A stretch of 64,000 bases of DNA from the IMG/VR virus record IMGVR_UViG_3300030330_003102, one strand, 5' to 3'. Positions within the stretch are counted from its first letter, which is position 1; each line of letters opens with the position of its first letter. The translations under genes and the position numbers were made by a program. Of this stretch, positions 4,687 to 57,149 are shown piece after piece. The notes beneath the pieces are model-generated. The model was given only the letters and a program-made list of their open reading frames with translations, was not told the origin of the DNA and searched no databases. Source of the DNA: an uncultured virus (IMG/VR IMGVR_UViG_3300030330_003102) (taxonomy: Duplodnaviria; Heunggongvirae; Uroviricota; Caudoviricetes).

Positions 4687-5634
4687 ATGAGTTGGGGAAC
4701 ACAAGCACCTGAACCAGTAAGCACGCCAAAGACCGTAGAGCCTGTCACACGCTTCGATGAAGCATATTACAGGAACCTATTTGAGAACAACCGCACTAAC
4801 TCTATCACACATAGATGTGCGCTTGTGGGGCATGAGAACACCCTCAAGACAGGGCTTGCTCTTTCGTTCCTTGAGCCTGAAATTGAGGCCGGTAAATCTG
4901 TATATGTTTTTGATATAGATAACTCCGCGAAGTCAACGATAGACCATGTGTACCCTAACAACCCGAACATTGTAGTGCTACCACTACACGACGAGACTGA
5001 TGACTCCATCTTTGATGAGGAGAACAATGTGGACTACAAGGCTCTCCTTGATAAGACCTCATATTATGTAAATATCCTCGCTGACAAAGTGAAGGAGAAC
5101 CCTGAATCAGTAGGTGGTGTAATCTTTGATGGTGGCTCTACTTTCCTTAAGTGGTGCGAACACGCTATGCGTAAGTCGCTACTATCAAGAGGAGTTATAG
5201 AGACTGAGGACGGAACATTCAATCAGAAGGAGTGGCGTGAGCGCAACAGACTTTACCGTAATGTTCTAACAAGACTACACAGCCTTAATGTGGCTAAGGT
5301 CTATTTCACATTCCACCTAAAGGCCGTATCTGAATACTTGGACGACGGCACAGGTAAGAAGGTTCTAATGACCGTAGGACACAGACCGGAGTGGGAGAAG
5401 GGAACTATGAGAAAGTTTTCACAACAAATCTTCCTATCTCGTTATATGAAGAAGGCTGACATGGCCGCTGGCGTCGAGGGTGATAGAAGCCTAAAGGACG
5501 GTGAGTGGGTCGTTCGTGCTAAGATAGAGGAGATGAAGGGACAACACATCGAGAAGGTCGGCACAGTATCTGATGTTGCCCGCATCAAGGATGGTAAGTT
5601 TAATTTCATTGGTCTTGAGTGGATGAAGGAGTAA
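4687..5634 (+). CDS. RecA-superfamily ATPase (Sak4/RadB-like)
   Basis: Degenerate Walker A GHENTLKT, VFDID, Walker B VIFDG, FTFH. Confidence 0.65.
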   Translation: MSWGTQAPEPVSTPKTVEPVTRFDEAYYRNLFENNRTNSITHRCALVGHENTLKTGLALSFLEPEIEAGKSVYVFDIDNSAKSTIDHVYPNNPNIVVLPLHDETDDSIFDEENNVDYKALLDKTSYYVNILADKVKENPESVGGVIFDGGSTFLKWCEHAMRKSLLSRGVIETEDGTFNQKEWRERNRLYRNVLTRLHSLNVAKVYFTFHLKAVSEYLDDGTGKKVLMTVGHRPEWEKGTMRKFSQQIFLSRYMKKADMAAGVEGDRSLKDGEWVVRAKIEEMKGQHIEKVGTVSDVARIKDGKFNFIGLEWMKE

Positions 5635-5639
5635 TCCAC

Positions 5640-6479
5640 ATGCCTATTGTTGTTGAAACTGAATCGCTCAAGTGGCTACTTTCGTTGATGCAACGGAAGC
5701 AAACCATTGACGGTAAAAGTATTTCACAGGTACATTCTCTTTTGCTAAAAGCAAACGAGGGTAGGTTGAGTGCTTGTACGCTAGTAAAGGATGGCGTCAC
5801 ATCATTAATGCGCCTTTCAATACCTTGTACTGGTGAGGGAGAGTTTGCGATAACAGATATTGAGGATGTTTTGGGTGTTCTAAAATATCATGGGGGTGTT
5901 CTATACATTACACCTGAAACAGATAAGGTCAAGTTTAAGTCTAGTACCAAACAAACAACCCTTAGTGCTAATAAAGAGGCGAGGGCGTTTCCGCACACAC
6001 CTGACACTATCGCTCTTTGGGCTGAGAAGTCAGATAGTTTGGCTAAGAAGATAAATGTTGATGATATGAAATACCACACTAACGAAGGAGAGGCTTTGGA
6101 TGTTGCGCTACGCCTTTCTGACCTTAGCACCACTACTCTTTACGAAGCATTTAGGTGCGACTCTATGAATGGTCAGAAGTTTAATAAATACACCATACAA
6201 TATACAAACAATAAATTATTGGTGACTGTTGGTGATGAATTAAAGGGTAAAACTACTACTCAGATAAACGAAATCTTGTATTCGTATGTTAACATGGAAG
6301 ATGAATCACGGGAGATAACTGCCACATATAACGGGGGGCTTGAATATATATTCCAACACCTAAACAACGATGTCAACATAGGTGTATGGGACTTCACTCA
6401 TGTCAATAATGGTTATCCTATGCTAATAACTCTTGGTGATGGTGACTTCATATTTCAAATATCAAACGAGGTTATATGA
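5640..6479 (+). CDS. Putative DNA sliding clamp (PCNA-like)
   Basis: About 279 aa, alternating alpha/beta pattern ending PMLI...FIF, located between clamp loader and PolB; weak motif evidence. Confidence 0.55.
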   Translation: MPIVVETESLKWLLSLMQRKQTIDGKSISQVHSLLLKANEGRLSACTLVKDGVTSLMRLSIPCTGEGEFAITDIEDVLGVLKYHGGVLYITPETDKVKFKSSTKQTTLSANKEARAFPHTPDTIALWAEKSDSLAKKINVDDMKYHTNEGEALDVALRLSDLSTTTLYEAFRCDSMNGQKFNKYTIQYTNNKLLVTVGDELKGKTTTQINEILYSYVNMEDESREITATYNGGLEYIFQHLNNDVNIGVWDFTHVNNGYPMLITLGDGDFIFQISNEVI

Positions 6480-6757: not shown

Positions 6758-6963
6758 CTTGGACTAAACCTATAACCACTAATAGCGGACAGACTGTTTT
6801 GCGTATTGATGATATTTCTGCGGTGACATTAGATTTGCATAATGCCGCCGGAACAACATACTCTATTCACATGAGGTCAGGTACTATATTTACAACAAGG
6901 ACTGATGGTAGATATATTATGGGGCTTTGTGGAGGAACAATGAAACATCCGGTGATGAAATGA
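6754..6963 (+). CDS. Hypothetical protein
   Basis: ATGA-coupled; SD-like GGAGG upstream. Confidence 0.6.
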   Translation: MTWTKPITTNSGQTVLRIDDISAVTLDLHNAAGTTYSIHMRSGTIFTTRTDGRYIMGLCGGTMKHPVMK

Positions 6964-11910: not shown

Positions 11911-12600
11911 ATGCTCTTAGTAGATGACCGCGAGAACCCGAAGGTCATCAACAAATTACTCATGCGTATGGGTAAAGATGAGGTAAAAGTATGTCGGATG
12001 AAAGCATCCGATTACACCATAGGTGAGTGGGGTATAGAGGCCAAAGAGATAAACGACCTGTATAGGTCTATCATGGGCTTCGGACGCACACGCACCATTG
12101 TTGACCAACTGAAAGACTTAGAGGAGTCCTGTGAACATCCCTTCTTGGTGGTGTATGGTACTGAATTAAAGCCCTATGTACCTAATGGAAAACCTACCGC
12201 TAAGGCGTTGGCAGTAGAGATGGCTAGGATGAAGAAGGTGATTAAACAATTCAAGACCACATTTTATCAAAGATTCCCTAAAATTAAATACATGGAAGTC
12301 ACTACTATGGACGAGTTTGTAGAATGGCTTGTCGTTAATCATACGCAGCAGGGGTTAGCATATTATCGCCATAAAACAGAAGAAAAAAATGCTATTAAAA
12401 AATCTGAACTAGACCCAAGAATCCAAATTCTATCTTCTGTGGATGGTGTCACCGTAGGTCAAGCAGAAGATTTATTAGCGGAGTTCGGTAGCATACCAAA
12501 TATACTAAGGAAAGGAACTACACAGAAGGCGCTGATGGGTGTTAATGGTATTTCAAGAAGGAAGGCCCGCGCAATACTTTCGCTTAGAGAAGATTATTAA
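11911..12600 (+). CDS. XPF/ERCC4-family nuclease with C-terminal HhH motifs
   Basis: VDDRE, DY, IEAK..DL, two HhH repeats (DGVT, NGIS). Confidence 0.88.
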   Translation: MLLVDDRENPKVINKLLMRMGKDEVKVCRMKASDYTIGEWGIEAKEINDLYRSIMGFGRTRTIVDQLKDLEESCEHPFLVVYGTELKPYVPNGKPTAKALAVEMARMKKVIKQFKTTFYQRFPKIKYMEVTTMDEFVEWLVVNHTQQGLAYYRHKTEEKNAIKKSELDPRIQILSSVDGVTVGQAEDLLAEFGSIPNILRKGTTQKALMGVNGISRRKARAILSLREDY

Positions 12601-15600
12601 TTAGGCGAAAACTGATTGGATGTAGAGGTTGTGTGAGCAGATGCTCTCTGCATCTTTACATCCAAGTTATGTATTGTTATACCTGTTGTATCAGCATTAT
12701 CTTCTCCTATACCGGCCTTTCTAGTTATTATTACCTTAACTTTTCTACCGGAGTTTCTAAGCCCTGTAATGGGTTTATTTGACAACAAAGTTATGGTTTT
12801 ATTTCTGATTCCTGTTCTTACTTTGACTTCGTTAGTAATAGTTTCTCCAGTTTCTTCTATGGTGACAGTAATATATAGTATTCCTCTTGTAAATGTTGTG
12901 CTTACAGTATTTCCTACCGAGGGACTATGCGTTATATTTGCTTGTACTGTAAGTCTATTACTCAAAATATCTGTAGGTATAGTAAATGTAGTCTCTATGT
13001 TTGTTTCTTGTGATGTTGCTACGGCATCTCCTACACCTAAAAGACCCTTACCACCAAACATATACCCGTCTGCTGTGACCGATGCTGAACCACCAGTCAC
13101 ATGTATATCTACACCCATACCTTCAATACCTCTCTTGGTTGAAGGTGTACTACCAGTTTTCCCTTGACCTAGAACCGAAAACTTTGAGTCTCCCGAAAGG
13201 TCGTTGTTTGGTAAATCCATCCTACCACTTAATCTACCATAGGCAGTACCCGAAAGGCTACCTAATCCTATACCACTAGATGCATCATAGATAGTGCCAG
13301 TAGAATCTCTAGTGTTGCCTCCGGGCTTTTGTTTGCTTGGGTCGGTCAAAGTATCAGAATCGTTTACTGGTGGTTTATCGTTTACTGGTGGCTCTTGATA
13401 ACTACCATCATCGCCACCGCCACCTACAGGAGAACTACTCTGCCTTCCGGGTGAATGTTTAGGGAAAAGATAAGATATTAGACCACCAGTAGCAATAGAC
13501 TCGTCCCTTTCTAATACTAGACTTACTTCTTCTGCTCTACCTGATGGAACCTTCCATAAAATGTCTTGTATAACCATAGGTTCCGAATTTAACTCCAAAC
13601 CAGCATCCGTCACACTAACATAAGTTGCTGGGGTGTATGATAAATCACGACAAATCTGAATGCGTGGTGCATACCACCACTTTCTAGCATCTCTAAACCC
13701 ACCTCCCATTTCGCTATACACTCTTAATCCCAATGGGAAAATACTATGTAAGTTTGTTGACCCGCTTCCATTATTTACGCTACTATCTAAAATATAGTCT
13801 GCTGACCCGTGTGCTGTTTGTGTAGGGTCGCCGCACCTGTGTCGTAGAAGGGCACGACAGTATTCTGCATTAAACGAAAATACTATTTTTGCGCCAGCAG
13901 TTGCTCCGTATGTACTTGGAATATCAATCTCATAAAACCCACTATGTTTTACATCTTTTGTGCTTACCATAGATGAAGTAGCACCACTTACTGTTTTGTT
14001 TTTATCATTAGTATAGTTATAATCTGCTATTGTCACTACAAACTCTGCTTCATCTATGCTTGTGCCTGTTTGGTTTTTCAAATCAACAGTCATTCTCATA
14101 GAGTGACCATTACTATTAGTAAGCGGTGTTTTGTTTGGTATATGCACTATTTGTACAGCGTTAGAAATAGAATTACTTCCATACCAATAATAGTTATGTT
14201 TCCACTCTACATCTCCAGCAGCATTAGTGTCTTTGGAGGAACCATATCTAGTTTCTAATGGGTCTATATCCACATTTATGTTGCCATCTAACGCATTAAC
14301 CATTCCGGGAAACAATACACCGCCAGTACCAAGAATAGACCAATTACATACATTTGCTACAGTATCATTTGTACCTGCTAAAGCAATATAAGGGTCTGCT
14401 ATATAGCCATATCTTCCACTCTCTATCATTTTATGTTCAACATCACTTTCAAGTATTGGAGTAATAGATAATTCAAGTGGATTAGTTTTTCTCAAATCAT
14501 ACTCTTGTTTAGCGACAAGCAAGGCTTCGTCACCCGAAGTTATTTCAGGATGATTTACTATATTCCATCTTGTAGTATCTCCTAGACTTACAGAAGGCCA
14601 ATCAACAAAGGATAAACCATTGTTGTAATATACACGAACATTTGTTATTTGTCCTGTTAAGTTGGTTCTTATGCTACCAATATGTATGTTATCTCTGTTG
14701 AATACTAGACCTGAATTATATTTTGGTCTAAACTCAAATCTGTTGTCTTTGCCTATTAGATATGAAAATGATGTGTGAAGGCTATTTGTAGTACCATAGC
14801 CAGCCTTTTCTTGTATAGAACTTATAAGAGCCCCTAATGTTTTCCCTCTACTATCCATAATAGACCCGTAGGAATCATTTGAAGAAGTATCATTGTAGGT
14901 AGTCATCATCTTAGTGACTGGAACATTGTTTATATCAAACATAGAATTAACTCTCGCTGATGGCAACCAAGTGTCCATGATTGCCGCATTCCATAACATA
15001 CGGAACTTGTCGCTATCCCAATATGTTCCTCCGTTTTCGCTTTTATAGAAACCATCAATATGCATCATCAAACGCAACATATACGCAGAATAAACAGTAG
15101 AGTGTACTTCGTATGCTATTGGTGTTGTTTCGCTACCACTTGTAGTACCAAGACTCATATTAATTCCTAAGTCTGACCAATCAACTGCCATCGCATCATA
15201 GATTTCCCACAAATTAGATTCAAGATTTAGCAAATCTTGTGAAATAGACTCTGTTATATGTGTTCCGTCTATAACATATATCTTTGCTAGTTGTTGGGGT
15301 ATTTTAACAGTATCTGTGGTTGCCCAAGAGCCATCGCTTACAACTTGTAATTCTTTTTGTCCAACTACACTATATATGTTATGGTAAGTAATAGTACCTG
15401 ATGTGTTAGTCCTTTCTATAACCATACCTGTTTTTATACCATCGGTTTCAAATGTATTATCATCGGTGACTATATTTACTACAGGGAAGCCCGTATATGG
15501 GGCTTGTGCGCCTACTGTAGTCTCCGAACTGACAGTATCAATTGTTCCATCTACTTCTGTTTCTAATTTACCATCCCATGCAAAATAATTAATATCGCCC

Positions 15601-18600
15601 GGATTTTCATTTCTGTTTTGTTGGTACACAGTAATTAGTTTACCCATACCTTTATCCTGAAACAAAGATGCGTCGTTTACTGGTAATCCTATTAAACCAT
15701 CTACGAAACCAATACTTGCTAAAGTTGCAGAAGAAATTAAATAGTTTTGGTTTTTATTTTCTTTTGTTATATCTCCTGTAGTTTGGTAAGATGCAAGAGC
15801 CTCAGTCCAATAATTATCTATAAGCGCAGGGAAACCAGTCCTTCCTTCAACAACATAATTTTGTAAATCCGTTCTTCCTCCGGCATCTTGGCCTGTTTTA
15901 CCACCGTTTATATGTGTGTTGAGATTGAAAAACTTCGCAGCATCAATTATCAAAAACGCGCCCCCCTTATTTTCCCAATCGTGGTACACATCTAATACAT
16001 CTTCTGTAGTTGGACAATAATATGCACCGCCCGTACCTTCGCCGTTTCCAACATAAGTAGTGGTTGTGTGTATATAGGTATCGTTGCTTACTGAATCTAC
16101 TAAGTGCGCACCATCATGGCTCGTACTATTAATGATATAGATATAATCACCGGCAGCAACAGTACCAGTTTCGCTTGTAGTTATTCTTAGTTTACTACCG
16201 CTATCTGTAAGAGCAATTGCTTGTTTTGAGTTATAGTCAACTGGTTTTGAGAATGGTATTCCGGTTATTGGTTCTGTTGTAGCATCAACATTCCAAACAT
16301 CTAAATCCTCTCCCACATTAAGGCTACCAAACTTGTCTATGTTTCCGTTAGCATCTACTTGGTCAGCAAAATATAAATCAAAATCATAATTTTCGTTTAC
16401 TGGATATTGTAAACCAAAGTCTGTTTTTCTCTCGCTACCATCAGCGTCAGCATTTCCGTTGTTTCTCATATCTGACCAAAGCAACCATATATGTTTGTAA
16501 TCATCTTCAAAATCTTGGAACTTGAGATAAATGCGTTTGTTGGTTCCATTCTCCGAATAATTATAAGAAGAATCTATTGCGTAAGTGCCATGAATATGTT
16601 GTACCCCTATAAGATACCACGCGCTACCAGTAGTGGCCTTTCCTTTGTAGATAAATTTTTCCTTAAACTCTGTTGCGTTTGTATATTGTGCTGGTGATAC
16701 ATTCGGTGTTGACCATATTTCTGCAACACCAGCATTAGGTGCGGCATCATAGGCTGTTTCGTCAACTTGTATTACGGTAGTAGTAGGTGAAAGGGTTTGG
16801 CTCACGCTAACCCTACTATAACTAGCGTTTGAAGTACCAGCAATATGACCTGTTTGTGGGGCTGGTGGGGGCTCGTCTTTGGGGTCCCTCTTTACTATAC
16901 CAAAGTGATACTTAAACCACAATGAATTGCTAAGGTCACGCATCCATCGTGCGTGAATAGGTCTATGTTTAATTGTCTCTTGGTTTGTACCAAAAACATT
17001 ACTAATTGTTCCAGTATCTTTCGACCAAGAAAACCTATTACTACTTACTAACAAAACATCAGAAGGAGCATAAGCGTTTGCTGCATATACACCGTGATTT
17101 TCAGCACCGTCGTAATCAGTATTTGTTTTGACTACCCACAAATACATTAAGTTGGTAGCAAGATAAGTTCCTGTACCATAAGTATTACCAAAATAATTAC
17201 GGATTTTTACTATACGATTTACTGTGTGTTTTACATTATAAGCCGCAGTAAGATTACCACTACCACCATCATTTTTTCTATTAATATAGAAAGTATCTCC
17301 TTCTTCTAAATTAGGGTCTGCATCAAAATAGACATAAAGTTTGTTAAGAACTGTTGTACCAGCGGGCCAATTATTTGTTGATGGGGCAACATCAAGGACA
17401 TTTGTTATCCAGTCACGATAGGGGTCGCCCTGTATTGAGCCTGTGGCGTTATAATAATCAATTCTTTCTGATTCAGGAACATTTGGGTATTTACCTATAT
17501 AGACAATTTTTGCTGTTTCGGGTGCATAAGCAAGAGTTGTATTAGCAAACTCAACATCAGCACCACTCACAGCACTTACTGTTAAACCACTACCGTTATG
17601 GTTTGTGCTTTGCATATTTACTCCACCCGAAGGAACAGATGTAGTAATACCGTGCGATGAATCTTTCATAATCGCTATCGTGTTTGTTGAGCCTACCTTT
17701 TGAACAAACCCGTCTATTGCATAACCTTCGTAATCATCTTCTATACTATTTGGTCCATAAGTGTCCTCATTATTATACATCTGTATGGGGTGTCCTGAAC
17801 CTAGTTGTGTTCTTTGGTCTGCTGTTTCCGCGTATGAACTGTCAGATTCAAAACCAACATTTCCATCAAGTAGTTTTAGTTTATCTGCACCAAGATACAT
17901 AGCATTTCTAAAGCCGTGAGCATCATAACTCCAATAGTCGGTAGAATCTTCTGAGGTGTTTTGCCCCTTTTGTCCTACATCCCATAATGGTATTTGTTTA
18001 TCAAAATAACTCATAGTATCTTGGGCCGATAAGGTAATAACTCTATTACGCCTTTTTTCTTTAATGTTAAAAGTAGATACTTCCCCTTTCCATACGGGCC
18101 TATCAATTCTGCTAGTTGAGTCGGCAAAAACTAATAGGTTCCAATCTAGGGGCGTAGAGGCGACAAATAGGTTTTTAAGATTAAGTACATAATCAGTAGC
18201 GGCAGCGCCTCTTACTCCCCCAGTTAAATCGGGGTCATCTGCAATACTAATTTGACATGTAGATATTCCATTTACTGTTTGTTGTATGTTTAATTCTGTA
18301 ATATGTACTTCTTCTGTAGTAGAAATATCATCAGTAAGATACCTCACAAGACCTACTCTATCAAGCATCAAATAAGATACAAACCCACTTGTACCACTAC
18401 TACCTGTATTAGTGACAGTAATCTGATAACCATATAAATTAGAAGCCGTAGTTGCAGACCCACCTGACATAGTATAACCACTACTATAAGACCCGGCTGT
18501 AGAGTTAGTAGAAGTAATTTCGGTTCCATTATAGTATGCCTTGAATTTATTATTGGTATAATCAAATACAAAGTCAATATCTAACCAAGCATTATCTATT

Positions 18601-19589
18601 GTCACTTGTGGTGTATCATAACTACCACCGCCCAAAAGTGCTTGGGTATCATAACTAATATCATCAAGGTCGAGAGTAAAATTAATTGCTGGTGTTCCTG
18701 TATATCCTTCATCGTTCAAAATACCAGCCTGTGCCACAGGAAACCCTACTTCAAAATGAATACCTACATCCGACCAAGTGCCACTTGAAATCATACTTTG
18801 TAATGCTATTCTTGCGGTAAATATATCTCCGTCAAGACGAGTATTCAAATGACCGTCATATATTATACTTGGTGTAGTATTAGAATCTGTATCTGTTTTT
18901 CTTGCTGCTTGTATGCATAAGAACGGTTGTTTTGAAGGTGAATGTATTTCTTGAAATATCTCGCCGGGAGTTGTGGTACTGCTATTTTGCTGTAGTTTTT
19001 CTCCCATAAACACCCCAGTCAAATGCGCTCTCTGTACGAAGTTTCCTGTTGTAGAGTGTAGCCCAGCATTGTCTGCGTTGTAATTAGTATCATCATAGGC
19101 TTTCATGTCGCTATGACCGAAAGTAGCATCATTGTCTCCTGTAGGTACAATGTAAGAAGCATTACTATTATGTCCATTGATAAATCGTTGGTAGAAATCA
19201 CTACCATAACCTGAATCATTGTCGAACTTATATCGGTTGGCTACATGACCATCGGGATATTGTAGTTGCGCTCTACCTTCCCAAGCATCGTTAGATAGCC
19301 TAGTATCATCAAATGTAAGCCACTCAAAAATACCGTCGTTTTGTAGATATTGGTTAGTGGTTGACGCAACCTTCTTCGCTGAGTCTTGGGTTCTTTCTTC
19401 TACCGAAAATCTAAAACGAGGATTGATAAATGCCTCCCCGTTCATCGGGTTTCCAAAATGACTTTTGGTAGCCGAATAAGTTGTATCGCTTGGTTGGTTG
19501 CGGTCATCCGGTATTGCTCTCGCTCCGTTAAAGTCATCATAGTAGCCAGCCAACCACACTTGGTACTTTTTGTTTACGCTTCTTACCAT
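12597..19589 (-). CDS. Large minor tail / baseplate-type protein (2330 aa)
   Basis: Immediately downstream of tape measure; rich in S/T/G/N/D; hub-like motifs. Confidence 0.7.
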   Translation of the reverse strand: MVRSVNKKYQVWLAGYYDDFNGARAIPDDRNQPSDTTYSATKSHFGNPMNGEAFINPRFRFSVEERTQDSAKKVASTTNQYLQNDGIFEWLTFDDTRLSNDAWEGRAQLQYPDGHVANRYKFDNDSGYGSDFYQRFINGHNSNASYIVPTGDNDATFGHSDMKAYDDTNYNADNAGLHSTTGNFVQRAHLTGVFMGEKLQQNSSTTTPGEIFQEIHSPSKQPFLCIQAARKTDTDSNTTPSIIYDGHLNTRLDGDIFTARIALQSMISSGTWSDVGIHFEVGFPVAQAGILNDEGYTGTPAINFTLDLDDISYDTQALLGGGSYDTPQVTIDNAWLDIDFVFDYTNNKFKAYYNGTEITSTNSTAGSYSSGYTMSGGSATTASNLYGYQITVTNTGSSGTSGFVSYLMLDRVGLVRYLTDDISTTEEVHITELNIQQTVNGISTCQISIADDPDLTGGVRGAAATDYVLNLKNLFVASTPLDWNLLVFADSTSRIDRPVWKGEVSTFNIKEKRRNRVITLSAQDTMSYFDKQIPLWDVGQKGQNTSEDSTDYWSYDAHGFRNAMYLGADKLKLLDGNVGFESDSSYAETADQRTQLGSGHPIQMYNNEDTYGPNSIEDDYEGYAIDGFVQKVGSTNTIAIMKDSSHGITTSVPSGGVNMQSTNHNGSGLTVSAVSGADVEFANTTLAYAPETAKIVYIGKYPNVPESERIDYYNATGSIQGDPYRDWITNVLDVAPSTNNWPAGTTVLNKLYVYFDADPNLEEGDTFYINRKNDGGSGNLTAAYNVKHTVNRIVKIRNYFGNTYGTGTYLATNLMYLWVVKTNTDYDGAENHGVYAANAYAPSDVLLVSSNRFSWSKDTGTISNVFGTNQETIKHRPIHARWMRDLSNSLWFKYHFGIVKRDPKDEPPPAPQTGHIAGTSNASYSRVSVSQTLSPTTTVIQVDETAYDAAPNAGVAEIWSTPNVSPAQYTNATEFKEKFIYKGKATTGSAWYLIGVQHIHGTYAIDSSYNYSENGTNKRIYLKFQDFEDDYKHIWLLWSDMRNNGNADADGSERKTDFGLQYPVNENYDFDLYFADQVDANGNIDKFGSLNVGEDLDVWNVDATTEPITGIPFSKPVDYNSKQAIALTDSGSKLRITTSETGTVAAGDYIYIINSTSHDGAHLVDSVSNDTYIHTTTTYVGNGEGTGGAYYCPTTEDVLDVYHDWENKGGAFLIIDAAKFFNLNTHINGGKTGQDAGGRTDLQNYVVEGRTGFPALIDNYWTEALASYQTTGDITKENKNQNYLISSATLASIGFVDGLIGLPVNDASLFQDKGMGKLITVYQQNRNENPGDINYFAWDGKLETEVDGTIDTVSSETTVGAQAPYTGFPVVNIVTDDNTFETDGIKTGMVIERTNTSGTITYHNIYSVVGQKELQVVSDGSWATTDTVKIPQQLAKIYVIDGTHITESISQDLLNLESNLWEIYDAMAVDWSDLGINMSLGTTSGSETTPIAYEVHSTVYSAYMLRLMMHIDGFYKSENGGTYWDSDKFRMLWNAAIMDTWLPSARVNSMFDINNVPVTKMMTTYNDTSSNDSYGSIMDSRGKTLGALISSIQEKAGYGTTNSLHTSFSYLIGKDNRFEFRPKYNSGLVFNRDNIHIGSIRTNLTGQITNVRVYYNNGLSFVDWPSVSLGDTTRWNIVNHPEITSGDEALLVAKQEYDLRKTNPLELSITPILESDVEHKMIESGRYGYIADPYIALAGTNDTVANVCNWSILGTGGVLFPGMVNALDGNINVDIDPLETRYGSSKDTNAAGDVEWKHNYYWYGSNSISNAVQIVHIPNKTPLTNSNGHSMRMTVDLKNQTGTSIDEAEFVVTIADYNYTNDKNKTVSGATSSMVSTKDVKHSGFYEIDIPSTYGATAGAKIVFSFNAEYCRALLRHRCGDPTQTAHGSADYILDSSVNNGSGSTNLHSIFPLGLRVYSEMGGGFRDARKWWYAPRIQICRDLSYTPATYVSVTDAGLELNSEPMVIQDILWKVPSGRAEEVSLVLERDESIATGGLISYLFPKHSPGRQSSSPVGGGGDDGSYQEPPVNDKPPVNDSDTLTDPSKQKPGGNTRDSTGTIYDASSGIGLGSLSGTAYGRLSGRMDLPNNDLSGDSKFSVLGQGKTGSTPSTKRGIEGMGVDIHVTGGSASVTADGYMFGGKGLLGVGDAVATSQETNIETTFTIPTDILSNRLTVQANITHSPSVGNTVSTTFTRGILYITVTIEETGETITNEVKVRTGIRNKTITLLSNKPITGLRNSGRKVKVIITRKAGIGEDNADTTGITIHNLDVKMQRASAHTTSTSNQFSPN

Positions 19590-29401: not shown

Positions 29402-37999
<8,598 letters not shown>

Positions 38000-52836: not shown

Positions 52837-53062
52837 GTTTTCTCCTCCCTTGTCGGGTAATCCGTCCTCGTAGTCGTCCCTTATGAACCTGTTGCTTAAC
52901 TACATAACATTTAGCGGCGCTTAACTACATAACATTTGTAGTTTGTGGAACTACATAACATAACTACATAACATTTGTAGTACACAACAAAATAAAAACT
53001 ACATAACAAAATCCAAAATCCTAATCCGAAATCCTAATTACAAATTTTAGCGTAGATTAAGC

Positions 53063-53380
53063 CTAGAAAAATTCAGGGGGGTAGTCGTGGAACTTCTCGC
53101 AAGCCAAATCAAATGCAGCGTCTGCCTTCCTCTCTTGCTCTCTCTCCCATGCACCCTCATCTAACTCCATCTCCGGGGAGTCATCGAAGTCAGTACAGTC
53201 TCCTTGAATTAGGTCTAGTTCGCTGTCGGGTAGTGGGATGATAGCCATGCCGATTTCAAGTTGAATATCGTTCAGATGCATCCCATGCTTGTTCTCAAGC
53301 AACGACACCAGTTTGTATAGGGCCGCCCTCGATTCTATCAGTTGCAGTTGTAGTTCTTGTATCATGTCCGCTTGGTCCAT
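53063..53380 (-). CDS. Acidic hypothetical protein
   Basis: Own promoter ACCTTAAGTACC; D/E-rich. Confidence 0.75.
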   Translation of the reverse strand: MDQADMIQELQLQLIESRAALYKLVSLLENKHGMHLNDIQLEIGMAIIPLPDSELDLIQGDCTDFDDSPEMELDEGAWEREQERKADAAFDLACEKFHDYPPEFF

Positions 53381-53599
53381 ACCCCGACGACAGGGTGTAG
53401 GTACTTAAGGTTCGCCCTCCTTTGTTATGTAGTTTTGACTAAGGTTGCGCCCTCGGAGACTACATAACATTATGTATGATTGGTAGCAACTACATAACAT
53501 TAACTACATAACATTAACTACATAATATATTAACATGAAAACTACATAACAAAGTATGAGTACAAAACTACATAACGAAAAACTACATATCAGTTCCAA

Positions 53600-53977
53600 T
53601 CAGACGCAGTAAGCACAATGACTACTGCCGCACTTGCATGATGGTTCGACTGGGTTGGCTGCTATCCATGCGTGCCAGTTGTGATTAAGAGGAGTCTCAG
53701 TCTGCATGACCCACACGGAGAGGCAGTTGCCCTCGACCTCGGTGCAGTTATCGTCAATCTCTAACTCGCCGTTCTGCTCTAGGAGGCACACAGCGTCCCA
53801 AAAGGCGCTACGAGGAATAACATCTTCATCAAACTCATAGTGATGAATATAACCAGCACCCTGCTCAAATTCACCATCCTCAAACGCCTCCCTTACCAAC
53901 ATTCTCACCAATTGGATTTGATGAGGTAGGAGTATAGTCATTCTTGGGGCTTGTCCGTTCGATTTTAGGTCGCTCAT
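53600..53977 (-). CDS. Acidic hypothetical protein with Cys-rich tail
   Basis: Own promoter AGGTTCATAAG. Confidence 0.75.
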   Translation of the reverse strand: MSDLKSNGQAPRMTILLPHQIQLVRMLVREAFEDGEFEQGAGYIHHYEFDEDVIPRSAFWDAVCLLEQNGELEIDDNCTEVEGNCLSVWVMQTETPLNHNWHAWIAANPVEPSCKCGSSHCAYCV

Positions 53978-54229
53978 GGTCTATCCATAGAGCATCCCCT
54001 TATGAACCTGCCGATATTATGTTATGTAGTTTTGACAAGCCGATACTATGTTATGTAGTTTCCGCTACTGAATCAACACGACCCCAAACTACATAACATT
54101 ATGTACCTATATGATACTTACTACATGATGAAAACTACATAACATTTTCCTAACAATTCTAAAACTACATAACATTCAAAACTACAAAAAAAGTGGGGGG
54201 CCGAAGCCCCCCAAAAACTACATAACCGA

Positions 54230-54478
54230 TTAGGTTTCGGCGTCCTCGATTTTGTCCCAGTCCGGCTCTTGGATGTCGGAAATTTTCTCCCAAAGTTTGT
54301 CCACATCAATTCCGCGCTCGCTGAGTAGTTTTGCGATGAAATGAATTTGGTTCAGACTGAGCGATGTGCCGTCGTCGCCGCCGAGATTGTTGTCAACTTC
54401 GCGGATGCCGATGGCGTACAATCTGATTAGATTCTTGGTTGATAGTTCGGGCAGTTTGGCTATGTATCGTGTCCTCAT
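54230..54478 (-). CDS. Hypothetical protein
   Basis: Own promoter ACCCTTAAGTACC; hairpin GGGGGC..GCCCCC downstream. Confidence 0.7.
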   Translation of the reverse strand: MRTRYIAKLPELSTKNLIRLYAIGIREVDNNLGGDDGTSLSLNQIHFIAKLLSERGIDVDKLWEKISDIQEPDWDKIEDAET

Positions 54479-54639
54479 ATTACTGGGATAGCGGTTGGGT
54501 ACTTAAGGGTTTTGTTGCCTATGTTATGTAGTTTTTCGCGGGACATTTAGTAGTATAATAACTACATAACATTATGTAGGAGCGTATTATTTTTTACTTG
54601 ACAAAAAAATACATAACATTATGTAGATGTAATTTGAAA

Positions 54640-54879
54640 AAAGAAAGTTCCCGCAACGCCCCCGCTTCATCAGGGCGGGGTGCGCTTAGGAGGAGCGGTG
54701 ATGAACCGCGAGAGCGTCAGCATCGCAATACTCTCACCCGCACATACGGGCCTTGCCTCCCACTTGGTTAGAGTCAGCGTCAGACTCTTTCGCGGTGCTC
54801 CGCCCCAAGCGCGGGGTCTGCACCTTGTGCCTTCCGTAACCCCCCATGAGAGGCGTTGGTTGGCCCGCCGTTGCAGACA
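54640..54879 (-). ncRNA. Putative structured ncRNA A (family unknown)
   Basis: Promoter AGGTTCTTATA, no ATG at the usual position, 5'/3' closing stem, U-rich terminator, covariation with RNA B. Confidence 0.75.
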
Positions 54880-55002
54880 AGGTGAACGAACAGCCCTGAG
54901 TATAAGAACCTTTCTATGACTACATAACATTATGTATCATCGGCGTTATACGCTTGGATTAAATTACTACATAACATTATGTAGGTGTAATTTTAAGAAA
55001 AA

Positions 55003-55242
55003 GAAAAAACCCCGCCACCTTCCCCTTTCCACAGGGGCGAGGCTTCGGAAGGGCTGGCTTGGAAAGCCAGCGAGGTCGCGAACCTCACCCGCCTATACGG
55101 GCTTACTTCCTACCTGATGAGCCGTATTTCATCTCTCTCAGGCGCGGGGCCGCTCAACCCCTGCTTTTCGCTACCCACCAAATACCACAGAACACTCGCG
55201 GAGGTCGTAGGATATTACATCGGTGGGGGGGTGTCTTGCGAC
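55003..55242 (-). ncRNA. Putative structured ncRNA B (paralog of A)
   Basis: Promoter AGGTTCATAAG, closing stem ACCCCCCCACC/GGUGGCGGGGU, U-rich terminator, shared core with A. Confidence 0.75.
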
Positions 55243-55388
55243 AAACCTCCGTGTCGTCGTTTGCTTATGAACCTTTCTATCACTACATAACATTATGTAA
55301 TGTTGGGTCAGTAAGTATAATAACTACATAATATATCACCGGAGGACTTACGCGGGCAAGCCCGCCGCCCCCGGATGATACATGATGA

Positions 55389-55694
55389 TTAGAAATCTAC
55401 GCTTCTGATTATGAAGCGGTCGTCGTCATATCCGGCTATGACCGTAGTCTGTGTTTCAATGTCCTCAATGGTTTCCCAATCGCCATAAGATTCTTGAAAC
55501 TCCTCAAGGTTCTCAAATTCTGTGAAATCACAGCATATAGCGATTACATCAAGTTCAATCTCAATGCCGCAATCATCTTCAAGGTCAGTCAAGTATTCGT
55601 ATAGCGCGAAGCGACCTAAGCGGGAGAAGTTCGCTTCTCTGCCCATATCGTCAAACGCTTGTACGAAGCGGTATTCGCTTACAGTATCTCTCAT
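55389..55694 (-). CDS. Acidic viral hypothetical protein
   Basis: F..AF..MGR..NFS..G..AL..YL...IELDVIAICCDF pattern that I recall from phage proteins; own promoter. Confidence 0.75.
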   Translation of the reverse strand: MRDTVSEYRFVQAFDDMGREANFSRLGRFALYEYLTDLEDDCGIEIELDVIAICCDFTEFENLEEFQESYGDWETIEDIETQTTVIAGYDDDRFIIRSVDF

Positions 55695-55839
55695 AGTTGG
55701 CCCACTTACTCCACCCTTATGAACCTTACGCATAACTACATAACATTAACTACATAACTTATGTAGTTAGTATGCATAACTTAATCAAAAACTACAAAAC
55801 ATTAAAATAATCCAAAAATCCAAAAACTACATAAGATAA

Positions 55840-56028
55840 CTACATAAGTTCTGTGTCATCCCTCCCCTCGTTCACTACATTGTCAATAATCATATTCATA
55901 ACGCGGTCATGCTCTGCGTAGAGGTCAGCGAAAGTTGCCAACCTCTCTCCCTCTTGGTTCTCGCCAACCGTCCTCAGTCCGGCCATTACGATTCTTTCAA
56001 TCCATCTGTATTCATGGGTCTTGTCCAT
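55840..56028 (-). CDS. Hypothetical protein
   Basis: Own promoter ACCCTTAAGTACC; stop codon lies inside a repeat copy. Confidence 0.65.
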   Translation of the reverse strand: MDKTHEYRWIERIVMAGLRTVGENQEGERLATFADLYAEHDRVMNMIIDNVVNEGRDDTELM

Positions 56029-56213
56029 GATACTGGGAGGGGGTGGGGGTACTTAAGGGTGTCGTTTAACTACATAACATTTCGTTGACTAACTACATAA
56101 CATTATGTAGTTTGTGTTGGTTAACTACATAACATCAAAACTACATAACAATTTGTAGTTCCAAAAACTACATAACATTTTCGGTTTCAAAACTACATAA
56201 CATGTTGTAGTTT

Positions 56214-56295
56214 CACTTGGTGCAAAAACTACACCGAGTGTAGTAAATTACACCGGGTGCAAAAAGTGAAGCAGGTGTGCTTGTGGCACTAGGTG
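56214..56295. promoter_or_regulatory. Four CACYNRGTG palindromes at the divergence point
   Basis: CACTTGGTG 56214, CACCGAGTG 56232, CACCGGGTG 56251, CACTAGGTG 56287. Confidence 0.6.
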
Positions 56296-56495
56296 TTTGA
56301 AGCAAAACCGAAAACTACATAATAAATCCAAATTGCGAACCTTTAAGTAGTTGTTCTTCTTCTCGCTTTGGGCTTCGGCTTCGCGGCCCCTGCGAAATAA
56401 CTACATAATCCGTAAAAGTAACTACATAAGATAACTACAAAACAAATTGTAGTTCAACGAAGCCTTTAAGTACCCCACCGCCGTCAGAGAAATTA

Positions 56496-57149
56496 ATGAG
56501 CGACCTACTAGACCGCATCGAACAGAAGAAAGCAGACATGAGAGAAGCCCGTGCAGGTATGAAGCAGGGCATCAAATACTCCTCGCGCTCGCTAGGAGGA
56601 CACACCACGCAGTACCGCAAACTGTGCCGCGAGGCGGGCATTCCAGTTGAGATAACCAAGATTGTCCAAGCAGAGGAGACACCGGCCCCGACCATCGGCA
56701 AGCCCTGCCGCTACAAGGCGTGCAAGGGACGCAATCACAAGTTGCACGGCGAAAAATGCCCGGTAGCATCAGCGAGAGGCAAAACCGGCGGACTGAACGG
56801 CGATGGAGAAGCCAAGCAACGCTTGGGAAGCACGAACGGAAACTTTAGGGCTGTTAGGCCGTGTGGCTGTCCCATGAGAGCGCACAAGCCCGACTGTGAA
56901 CACGCTAGACCGGCCAACCGCAAGGACTTCGGCACTACGGCGAAAAAGGTCAGACAGGTTCTCAATATCCAGTCAATCTCATGGCAGAGCAAGGCTCTCA
57001 GCGTGGGTGCAGTTGCACACATGATGAGAGGTGTCACAGGCGTCTGCTCAGGTTGCAAAGAATCAATCCCGGCTGTACAGGCCGTCAAGGTTCACCCTGA
57101 CGACATCATGCAGAATCCAGCACGGGTCATCTGCGGAGGGTGTGAGTGA
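56496..57149 (+). CDS. Basic Cys/His-rich putative nucleic-acid-binding protein
   Basis: C..C..H..C, CGC..H..C, CSGC...CGGC; promoter CCTTTAAGTACC. Confidence 0.75.
   Translation: MSDLLDRIEQKKADMREARAGMKQGIKYSSRSLGGHTTQYRKLCREAGIPVEITKIVQAEETPAPTIGKPCRYKACKGRNHKLHGEKCPVASARGKTGGLNGDGEAKQRLGSTNGNFRAVRPCGCPMRAHKPDCEHARPANRKDFGTTAKKVRQVLNIQSISWQSKALSVGAVAHMMRGVTGVCSGCKESIPAVQAVKVHPDDIMQNPARVICGGCE

Follow-up and report, generated by a model that had tools for sequence, protein, structure and literature searches.

A 64,000-nucleotide (nt) stretch of DNA from an uncultured virus of the class Caudoviricetes (IMG/VR record IMGVR_UViG_3300030330_003102; hereafter, the window) carries on its minus strand two units of ~240 nt, A and B, with predicted transcripts at positions 54641–54878 and 55003–55242, respectively. 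Each is a discrete unit that behaves as a gene transcribed on its own, and the RNA has a compact fold with a tertiary lock that is under selection. The best overall explanation, which we hold tentatively, is that A and B are two genes for an uncatalogued family of structured non-coding RNA present in some magrovirus-like viruses of marine archaea; that the structured RNA gene family itself is real, we consider very probable. A preliminary description of the window, made from the letters of the DNA, had proposed two paralogous non-coding units of this size at these positions, each with its own promoter and terminator, and our analysis recovered both units together with their individual transcription signals.

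Transcription signals and predicted transcripts of units A and B

The sequence ATAGAAAGGTTC occurs at exactly two sites in the 64 kb, one ahead of each RNA unit; when up to two mismatches are allowed, it has seven sites, compared to 6.6 expected. The unit B promoter (55264–55280, minus strand) consists of ATAGAAAGG and the TATA-like box TTCATAAG, and that of unit A (54901–54917, minus strand) of ATAGAAAGG and the TATA-like box TTCTTATA. These promoters had been described as matching those of the neighbouring protein cassettes. This is correct for the shorter core AGGTTCATAAG, the only promoter part common to the RNA units and the cassettes, but not for the longer ATAGAAAGGTTC, which is found only at the two units. 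The core precedes the ATGs at 53977 and 55697, each located 21 nt after TAAG, in agreement with the spacing of about 21 nt proposed earlier. The distance from the TTCATAAG box to the ATG is likewise constant at 21 nt, both at these two genes and in two related loci (L005, ~3180; L007, ~3527), which points to leaderless mRNAs and offers a ruler for transcription starts in these viruses. Given the same 21-nt spacing, the RNA 5′ ends should lie near G54878 (A) and G55242 (B). Other cassettes use a different TATA-like box, CCTTAAGTACC, ~22 nt before the ATGs at 54478, 53380 and 56028.

At the 3′ end, both units run into an oligo-U tract (54637–54646 in A and 54995–55009 in B, minus strand), in which the transcripts probably end. 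The tract is followed by AAATTACAYCTACATAATGTTATGTA (AAATTACAYC), as previously noted, and then by a palindrome. This palindrome, TACATAATGTTATGTA, has eight exact sites, all within 53461–56109, compared to 0.09 expected, and the sites bracket the cassettes. Around the RNA units, it is found as a putative operator upstream of the promoter of B (55284–55299), upstream of the promoter of A (54921–54936), and 3′ of the terminators of B (54968–54983) and A (54610–54625). Half-sites TTATGTAGTT form arrays at ~53490–53600, 55740–55860 and 56090–56450, and L007 and L004, from related viruses, show versions of their own at the same places (CTACAAATTAATTTGTAG and ACTACAAAATGATTTGTAGT, respectively). 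The arrangement suggests either an operator bound by a virus-specific regulator or an iteron-containing origin at the divergent point (~56.1–56.5 kb). We propose that the archaeal TATA-type promoter of the neighbouring leaderless genes drives each RNA gene and that the oligo-U tract ends the ~240-nt RNA.

Evidence for transcription was sought in assembled contigs from four marine metatranscriptome runs, derived from two samples of one study and mapped to positions 53000–56500. Three runs yielded one whole contig each, 215–223 nt in length, starting at 54649, 54650 or 54652 and reaching 54866, 54870 or 54871. These contigs together cover 54649–54871 and correspond to unit A, beginning just inside its predicted 5′ end and stopping at 54649–54652, next to the first base of the U-tract. 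The fourth run yielded a 162-nt internal contig of unit A with a k-mer depth of 38, flanked by two contigs of depth 3; the unit A contigs span k-mer depths of 5.5–38 overall. The match between the contig ends and unit A is suggestive of a discrete RNA. Separately, depth-3 contigs of the RNA libraries also lie over 54487–54651, the spacer 3′ of unit A, and over 53603–53770, part of a 125-amino-acid (aa) gene. At 54602, the spacer contig differs by an additional A, which is a homopolymer length variant.

That the units are no RNA genes at all, being instead small protein genes, structured DNA or regulatory spacers, is scarcely credible. Open reading frames (ORFs; translation table 11) do overlap them, for example at 54670–54930 on the minus strand (86 aa), antisense frames are open in five of the 10 family members described below, and the region is dense in operator-like palindromes. 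However, the 86-aa ORF begins upstream of the promoter box, and when we looked for the conserved overlapping ORF that the preliminary description had named as counter-evidence, every sense frame contained at least one stop in all 10 members. Stops occur in all six frames in five of the 10, the antisense frames being open only in the most GC-rich members. Moreover, the differences in the stems are compensatory, the helix interiors differ between members by lengths that are not multiples of three, and the discrete RNA-library contigs match unit A.

Conserved 3′ domain, probable kissing loop and variable 5′ domain

First relatives were obtained by blastn on loci around homologs of a nearby DUF932 gene. 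A covariance model of the 3′ domains of A, L007 and L003 (R1) found B at 55004–55151 (minus strand; 56.1 bits, E = 1.4e-11) and a divergent member in L013 (56.6 bits). Because R1 was built without B, this recovery places the proposed paralogy of A and B beyond chance. In viral contigs, a degenerate pattern of the most conserved stretch returned nine loci, each of which the model confirmed; in metagenomes it returned 20, of which 14 were confirmed and six were chance matches. Across the genomes of 185,579 species, the same pattern gave four loci, none of them model-confirmed and all attributable to chance; this search is limited to the pattern and is no evidence against relatives in hosts. Two simpler probes added no members: an exact hairpin-1 motif gave two loci in viral contigs, both chance matches within coding sequence, and a 16-mer of the 3′ hairpin gave 24 loci, only two of which were real and both already known. 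No match to either unit was found by blastn in distant mode among 50,697 phage records. Removal of duplicates left 10 distinct sequences, namely A, B and eight relatives from marine viral and metagenome contigs (L066, L061, L068, L063, L064, L060, L054 and L053). A second model built from these 10 (R2) scores the 3′ domain of B at 84.6 bits. The features that would define a new family, for which we propose the name magrovirus kissing-loop RNA (closing stem, P2, P3 with three hairpins, 3′ hairpin and loop complementarity), were found, with all 10 members aligning to the model.

The 3′ domain is closed by a local stem, CCCGC/GCGGG, formed in A by 54811–54815 and 54650–54654 (this and the following coordinates on the minus strand). 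Helix P2 reads GCUUG/CAAGU in A (54762–54810, with a branched interior), GCCUG/CAGGU in B and CACAU/AUGUG in L064, and all five of its pairs change on both sides across the family. P3 (GGAGG/CCUCC, GGAAG/CUUCC) encloses hairpins 1, 2 and 3; in A, this inner four-way junction occupies 54688–54761, with P3 formed by 54756–54761 and 54688–54693, hairpins 1 and 2 at 54710–54751, and hairpin 3 at 54695–54709. Two unpaired bases after P3 lead into a 3′ hairpin of 9–13 base pairs (bp) that stacks on the closing stem (54655–54686 in A). The few conserved unpaired bases lie in the junctions, where YAAG follows each P3 strand. The predicted 3′ domain would therefore comprise two nested four-way junctions: an outer one joining the closing stem, P2, P3 and the 3′ hairpin, and an inner one joining P3 and the three hairpins.

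Pair counts were made on a model-fitted alignment of the 10 sequences (A6), a procedure that biases pair and covariation counts upward; in it, 97.1% of 280 helix cells are standard pairs, compared to 77% in shuffles. Double-sided changes occur in 19 of 28 pairs, compared to 0–5 when the partners were slid by 1–3 columns, and the covariation score of 0.596 (0.045–0.133 slid) was reached by none of 500 shuffles. RNAalifold by itself predicted the same helices, plus hairpin 1 and two basal pairs of the 3′ hairpin, with compensatory changes in 21 of 35 pairs. Despite quite different sequences, the segment between P3 and hairpin 3 folds into the expected two hairpins in nine of the 10 members; in L066, this segment is branched. 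The inner helices listed in the preliminary description were all recovered, covarying across the 10 sequences, and the covariation upholds its claim that a four-way-junction core is under selection. The closing stem it had proposed did not generalize, having no good counterpart in L053 or L054; CCCGC/GCGGG is the general helix.

A further pairing had been overlooked: the 7-nt loop of hairpin 3 is complementary to the loop of the 3′ hairpin. The loop pair is UUCAUCA/UGAUGAA in A (54699–54705 and 54666–54672), L066, L061, L068 and L063; L064 and L060 have a wobble variant of it, and in L054 and L053 the loops pair over six positions. In B, both loops have changed and still match as UUUCCA/UGGAAA (hairpin-3 loop UUUCCAA, 55059–55065; 3′-hairpin loop UGGAAA, 55026–55031). 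Counted strictly, contiguous complementarity extends over 6–7 nt in nine members and over 5 nt in B, where the A of the stem that closes the loop contributes a sixth pair. As a MAFFT alignment set B out of register, the kissing loop was judged by duplex energies and not by pair counting. The cognate loop duplexes reach −5.4 to −6.2 kcal/mol, compared to −2.5 and 0.0 for the A × B cross pairs, and 0–47 of 1000 loop shuffles did as well as the cognate loops. We are fairly confident that the kissing loop is real.

The stack lengths also agree, since P3 (5–6 bp) plus hairpin 3 (4–6 bp) match the 9–13 bp of the 3′ hairpin, and the P3 stack and the 3′ hairpin leave the outer junction with a 2-nt linker. 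Such geometry should make side-by-side stacks with an intramolecular kiss easy, and we lean toward this intramolecular form. P3 and hairpin 3 would stack (~10 bp) beside the 3′ hairpin (~10–11 bp), with the 6–7-nt loop pairing locking a compact frame.

A multi-way junction with parallel stacks and a loop–loop helix is also the architecture of the cobalamin and lysine riboswitch aptamers, whose side-by-side stacks are joined by a 6–7 bp loop–loop helix, as predicted here. The RNA could accordingly be a ligand-binding aptamer, a riboswitch-like sensor or sponge, in which a pocket between the parallel stacks, together with the UAAG junction strands, binds a small molecule or ion; the conserved unpaired YAAG bases would fit such a pocket. 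We nevertheless consider this quite unlikely. No riboswitch family was matched even at E values up to 10, and there is no expression platform, because every unit is terminated separately and the gene that follows is served by a promoter of its own. A cis-regulatory riboswitch was rejected on these grounds: the U-tract terminator is followed by palindromes and the separate promoter of the next gene, and the RNA contigs end at the terminator. Unlike such aptamers, moreover, the RNA does not lie ahead of a regulated gene and has a long variable 5′ domain.

Alternatively, the complementary loops may pair between molecules, head to tail, and the RNA self-assemble into homo-oligomeric rings or cages, with A and B forming separate assemblies. 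Each member has two loops with 6–7 nt of complementarity, and the sets of A and B do not cross-pair. A conserved 3′ and a variable 5′ region are also described for GOLLD. The covarying kissing loop of ROOL proved intermolecular by cryo-electron microscopy (cryo-EM; PMC12286853), and phi29 prohead RNA (pRNA) multimerises by intermolecular kissing loops (PMC4201828, PMC2241910). Self-assembly is nevertheless unlikely, in our judgement. The matched stack lengths and the 2-nt linker leaving one junction would make the intramolecular contact easy; the RNA is absent from two of three near-complete relatives and is therefore not, as pRNA is, an essential component of the motor; the large terminase of the virus is an ordinary one; and no pRNA, ROOL or GOLLD model matched.

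The 5′ domains, 57–121 nt long, are unrelated between lineages, as expected from the variable 5′ module proposed earlier. Those of A (54816–54878), L066 and L068 are nearly identical, although parts of the 3′ domains differ. In nine of the 10 members, P1 forms between the first bases and those immediately preceding the closing stem, with a sequence that varies by member: GUCUGCA/UGCAGAC in A, GUCGC/GCGGC in B (5′ domain at 55150–55242), and UAGCA/UGCUA, AGUGA/UCACU or UGUAA/UUACA elsewhere. P1 closes the 5′ domain next to the closing stem, and the two RNA ends therefore meet. The end-to-end (5′/3′) closing stem of the preliminary description can also form, of 10 bp in L066 and L068 and 9–11 bp in A and B, but of only 5–7 bp in L054, L064 and L053; it may be an alternative conformer and not a general feature.

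The combination of a variable and a constant module resembles the layout of guide-plus-scaffold RNAs. The 5′ domain might thus recognise viral or host RNA or DNA, with the constant domain as effector scaffold, and its near invariance in A, L066 and L068, in which parts of the 3′ domains differ, would suit a base-pairing regulator or guide. Yet the 5′ domains are tightly folded and closed by P1; neither they nor the whole RNAs show significant complementarity to the rest of the 64-kb window (best E, 0.18); and no nuclease or recombinase gene is recognisable near the units. We regard a guide function as improbable.

Known RNA families, related viruses and genomic context

No Rfam (15) family matched the window or seven related loci at the gathering threshold, which agrees with an uncatalogued family; the families covered include RNase P, SRP, tmRNA, pRNA, GOLLD, ROOL, IMES, riboswitches and self-cleaving ribozymes. 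At E values up to 10, the region 54300–55600 gave nine matches, the best at E = 0.97 and all far under their own thresholds, and at E values up to 1, five further member loci gave one unrelated match. ARAGORN detected no tRNA or tmRNA gene in the 64 kb. These searches are in keeping with the earlier statement that the units bear no tRNA, SRP or RNase P signature.

The inner junction does look tRNA-like, with a closing stem and three hairpins, the third of which has a 7-nt loop beginning UUCA. Unlike in tRNA, however, the first arm is a tetraloop hairpin, the variable-loop spacing and a free 3′ acceptor end are lacking, and the 7-nt loop is complementary to another hairpin loop; with no match from ARAGORN or the tRNA models and a differing arm geometry, a tRNA-like identity was rejected. 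An archaeal box C/D sRNA was discarded as well, since UGAUGA occurs in one hairpin loop only, B has GUGGAA instead, and no snoRNA model reached threshold. The 3′ loop, NUGAUGA, is superficially like the hammerhead core, and the compact fold, the tertiary lock and the conserved junction purines could suit a ribozyme, self-cleaving or otherwise catalytic. Against this, the base before UGAUGA varies (C, G or U), B is without the motif, no hammerhead or other ribozyme family matched at E values up to 10, and the RNA contigs cross the whole unit unbroken. A hammerhead was therefore excluded, and a ribozyme of any kind is very improbable. Membership in GOLLD or ROOL was rejected given the missing Rfam match, the length of ~240 nt and the lack of tRNA genes in the window, and a phi29-type prohead RNA acting as a clade-wide essential motor part was rejected given that the RNA described here is present in only one of three near-complete related records and in four of 16 terminase loci with sufficient downstream DNA.

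To assess distribution, R2 was run on 13 DUF932 loci, where it found nothing beyond L003, L007 and L013, and on 81 further loci, 80 of them around terminase homologs. The latter gave nine strong matches, all in known contigs, and two weak ones, L098 (31 bits, without the inner junction) and L112 (18 bits). The L098 match (6809–6911, plus strand) keeps the closing stem, P2, P3 and the 3′ hairpin, with 11 nt in place of the three inner hairpins, and is possibly a reduced or decayed relative. Terminase loci with at least 6.5 kb downstream had a strong match in four of 16 cases, and whole virus records carried the RNA in one of nine cases, or in one of three among those at least 90% complete. The RNA is accessory, as its patchy occurrence among related viruses indicates. 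Two close lineages carry it in different orientations with respect to the terminase gene.

Another putative RNA gene, of an unrelated second type, was observed on the minus strand of L004 (5078–5449 and 4620–4925) and of L003 (~6020–6306), where it adjoins the kissing-loop RNA. It has a TTCATATA-type promoter, begins with GUAAGUGGG, measures ~290–370 nt and is without a long ORF; blastn gave 82–84% over two segments. It matched neither R2 nor Rfam, and the first RNA-like unit of L004 folds no better than shuffles (z = −1.0). One L004 copy has a P2-like module in common with unit A. That relatives have a second putative RNA gene type in this position hints at a hotspot for RNA genes in the early region of these viruses.

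The window is that of a magrovirus-like tailed archaeal virus. It encodes a family B DNA polymerase, an RFC-like clamp loader, a thermosome-type chaperonin, a portal, a large terminase, a tail tube and a tape-measure-like protein, the same gene set as that given in PMC5434244 for magroviruses, tailed viruses of marine group II archaea. The RNA units lie within a row of small cassettes on the minus strand at ~51–56.5 kb. The genes next to them have no informative Pfam or PHROG match, the sole PHROG match being phrog_9974, of unknown function, and an Atlas search of these genes returned unnamed viral clusters only. The phrog_9974 protein, acidic and 102 aa long (55389–55697, minus strand), has one relative in viral contigs, and homologs lie within 3.5 kb of the RNA in five of eight RNA-bearing loci; a 153–167-aa family of unknown function adjoins the RNA in four of the eight. 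A GC-rich hairpin element ending GUAAGUCCU(C/U)C, located 3′ of the 102-aa gene (55330–55385, minus strand) and with a counterpart in L007 (~5040–5090, minus strand), may be a terminator or another small structured element. Elsewhere in the window, a pair of giant minus-strand ORFs (29402–37999 and 12597–19589) comprises one of 2865 aa with many collagen triple-helix repeats (Pfam E = 4e-73) and one of 2330 aa without a Pfam match, which adjoins the tape-measure-like gene.

Possible role and significance of the RNA family

With regard to function, the RNA would act through its fold and not through long base pairing. The exchangeable 5′ domain, whose own stem P1 abuts the closing stem of the 3′ domain, would confer specificity, and the constant domain would provide stability and a common platform. 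The RNA may be expressed early in infection and serve as a stable accessory particle, binding or titrating a protein of host or viral origin. A fold-dependent role as scaffold or decoy in early infection is therefore conceivable, although we hold it as doubtful; it is suggested by the lack of long complementarity to the virus's own genome, the lack of an expression platform and dispensability for the core virus cycle. Adenovirus VA RNAs and Epstein–Barr virus (EBV) EBERs offer an analogy, as tandem paralogous, abundant and compact RNAs of ~160–170 nt with their own promoter and U-tract terminator that serve as protein-binding decoys. It is an analogy only, since polymerase III transcribes these RNAs in eukaryotes and they share no homology in sequence or structure with the RNA described here.

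Several observations weigh against this interpretation and against the explanation of A and B as a new RNA family. The neighbouring genes, being without an informative match, point to no partner protein or ligand. The members represent only about four lineages, and hence few independent events, and the covariation of the kissing loop comes from one lineage, that of B, on the sequences compared. Covariation does not distinguish intra- from intermolecular pairing; the covarying kissing loop of ROOL, first taken as tertiary, is intermolecular in cryo-EM (PMC12286853). Alternative pairing of the 5′ and 3′ ends is possible in A, B, L066 and L068. Finally, the RNA contigs are strandless and do not carry true ends, DNA carry-over is possible, and depth is a poor measure; no contig covers unit B or most of the neighbourhood in the four runs, which is not evidence of absence.

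Among characterized RNAs, GOLLD and ROOL come close in being virus-encoded, stand-alone, highly structured and of unknown function, with covarying kissing loops as a key feature (PMC12286853). They differ in length (~600–800 nt or more, compared to ~240 nt), in their hosts and setting (phages and prophages, often beside tRNA islands, compared to an archaeal virus with no tRNA gene in the window) and in forming nanocages, whereas the loop contact favoured here lies within one molecule. The phi29 pRNA is likewise a small viral RNA (174 nt) with a multi-way junction and two complementary kissing loops. Its loops, however, pair between molecules, and it is an essential part of the packaging motor, whereas the RNA described here is absent from two of three near-complete relatives, has a pair of four-way junctions as its core, and is encoded in the region of early small genes, in a virus whose large terminase is of the ordinary kind. 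Term searches of two magrovirus papers (PMC5434244 and PMC11706807) turned up no structured non-coding RNA, and literature searches on magroviruses and on archaeal viruses, structured RNA and metagenomes gave no description of such an RNA; it may still appear, unnamed, in subscription papers on marine small RNAs. We rate the RNA as a new family within a known kind, the virus-encoded structured small RNA.

In the unlikely event that the loops pair intermolecularly, the RNA might build RNA-only rings or cages, the two paralogs forming separate assemblies whose 5′ domains display or capture different host factors. If true, archaeal viruses would gain their first known quaternary RNA assembly and their first known RNA-based device of host takeover or counter-defence. 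This small RNA, which offers a testable tertiary lock, two natural loop codes that do not cross-pair and evidence of its presence in ocean RNA samples, can be studied wholly in vitro, and the family gives a handle on how magrovirus-like viruses act on their hosts.

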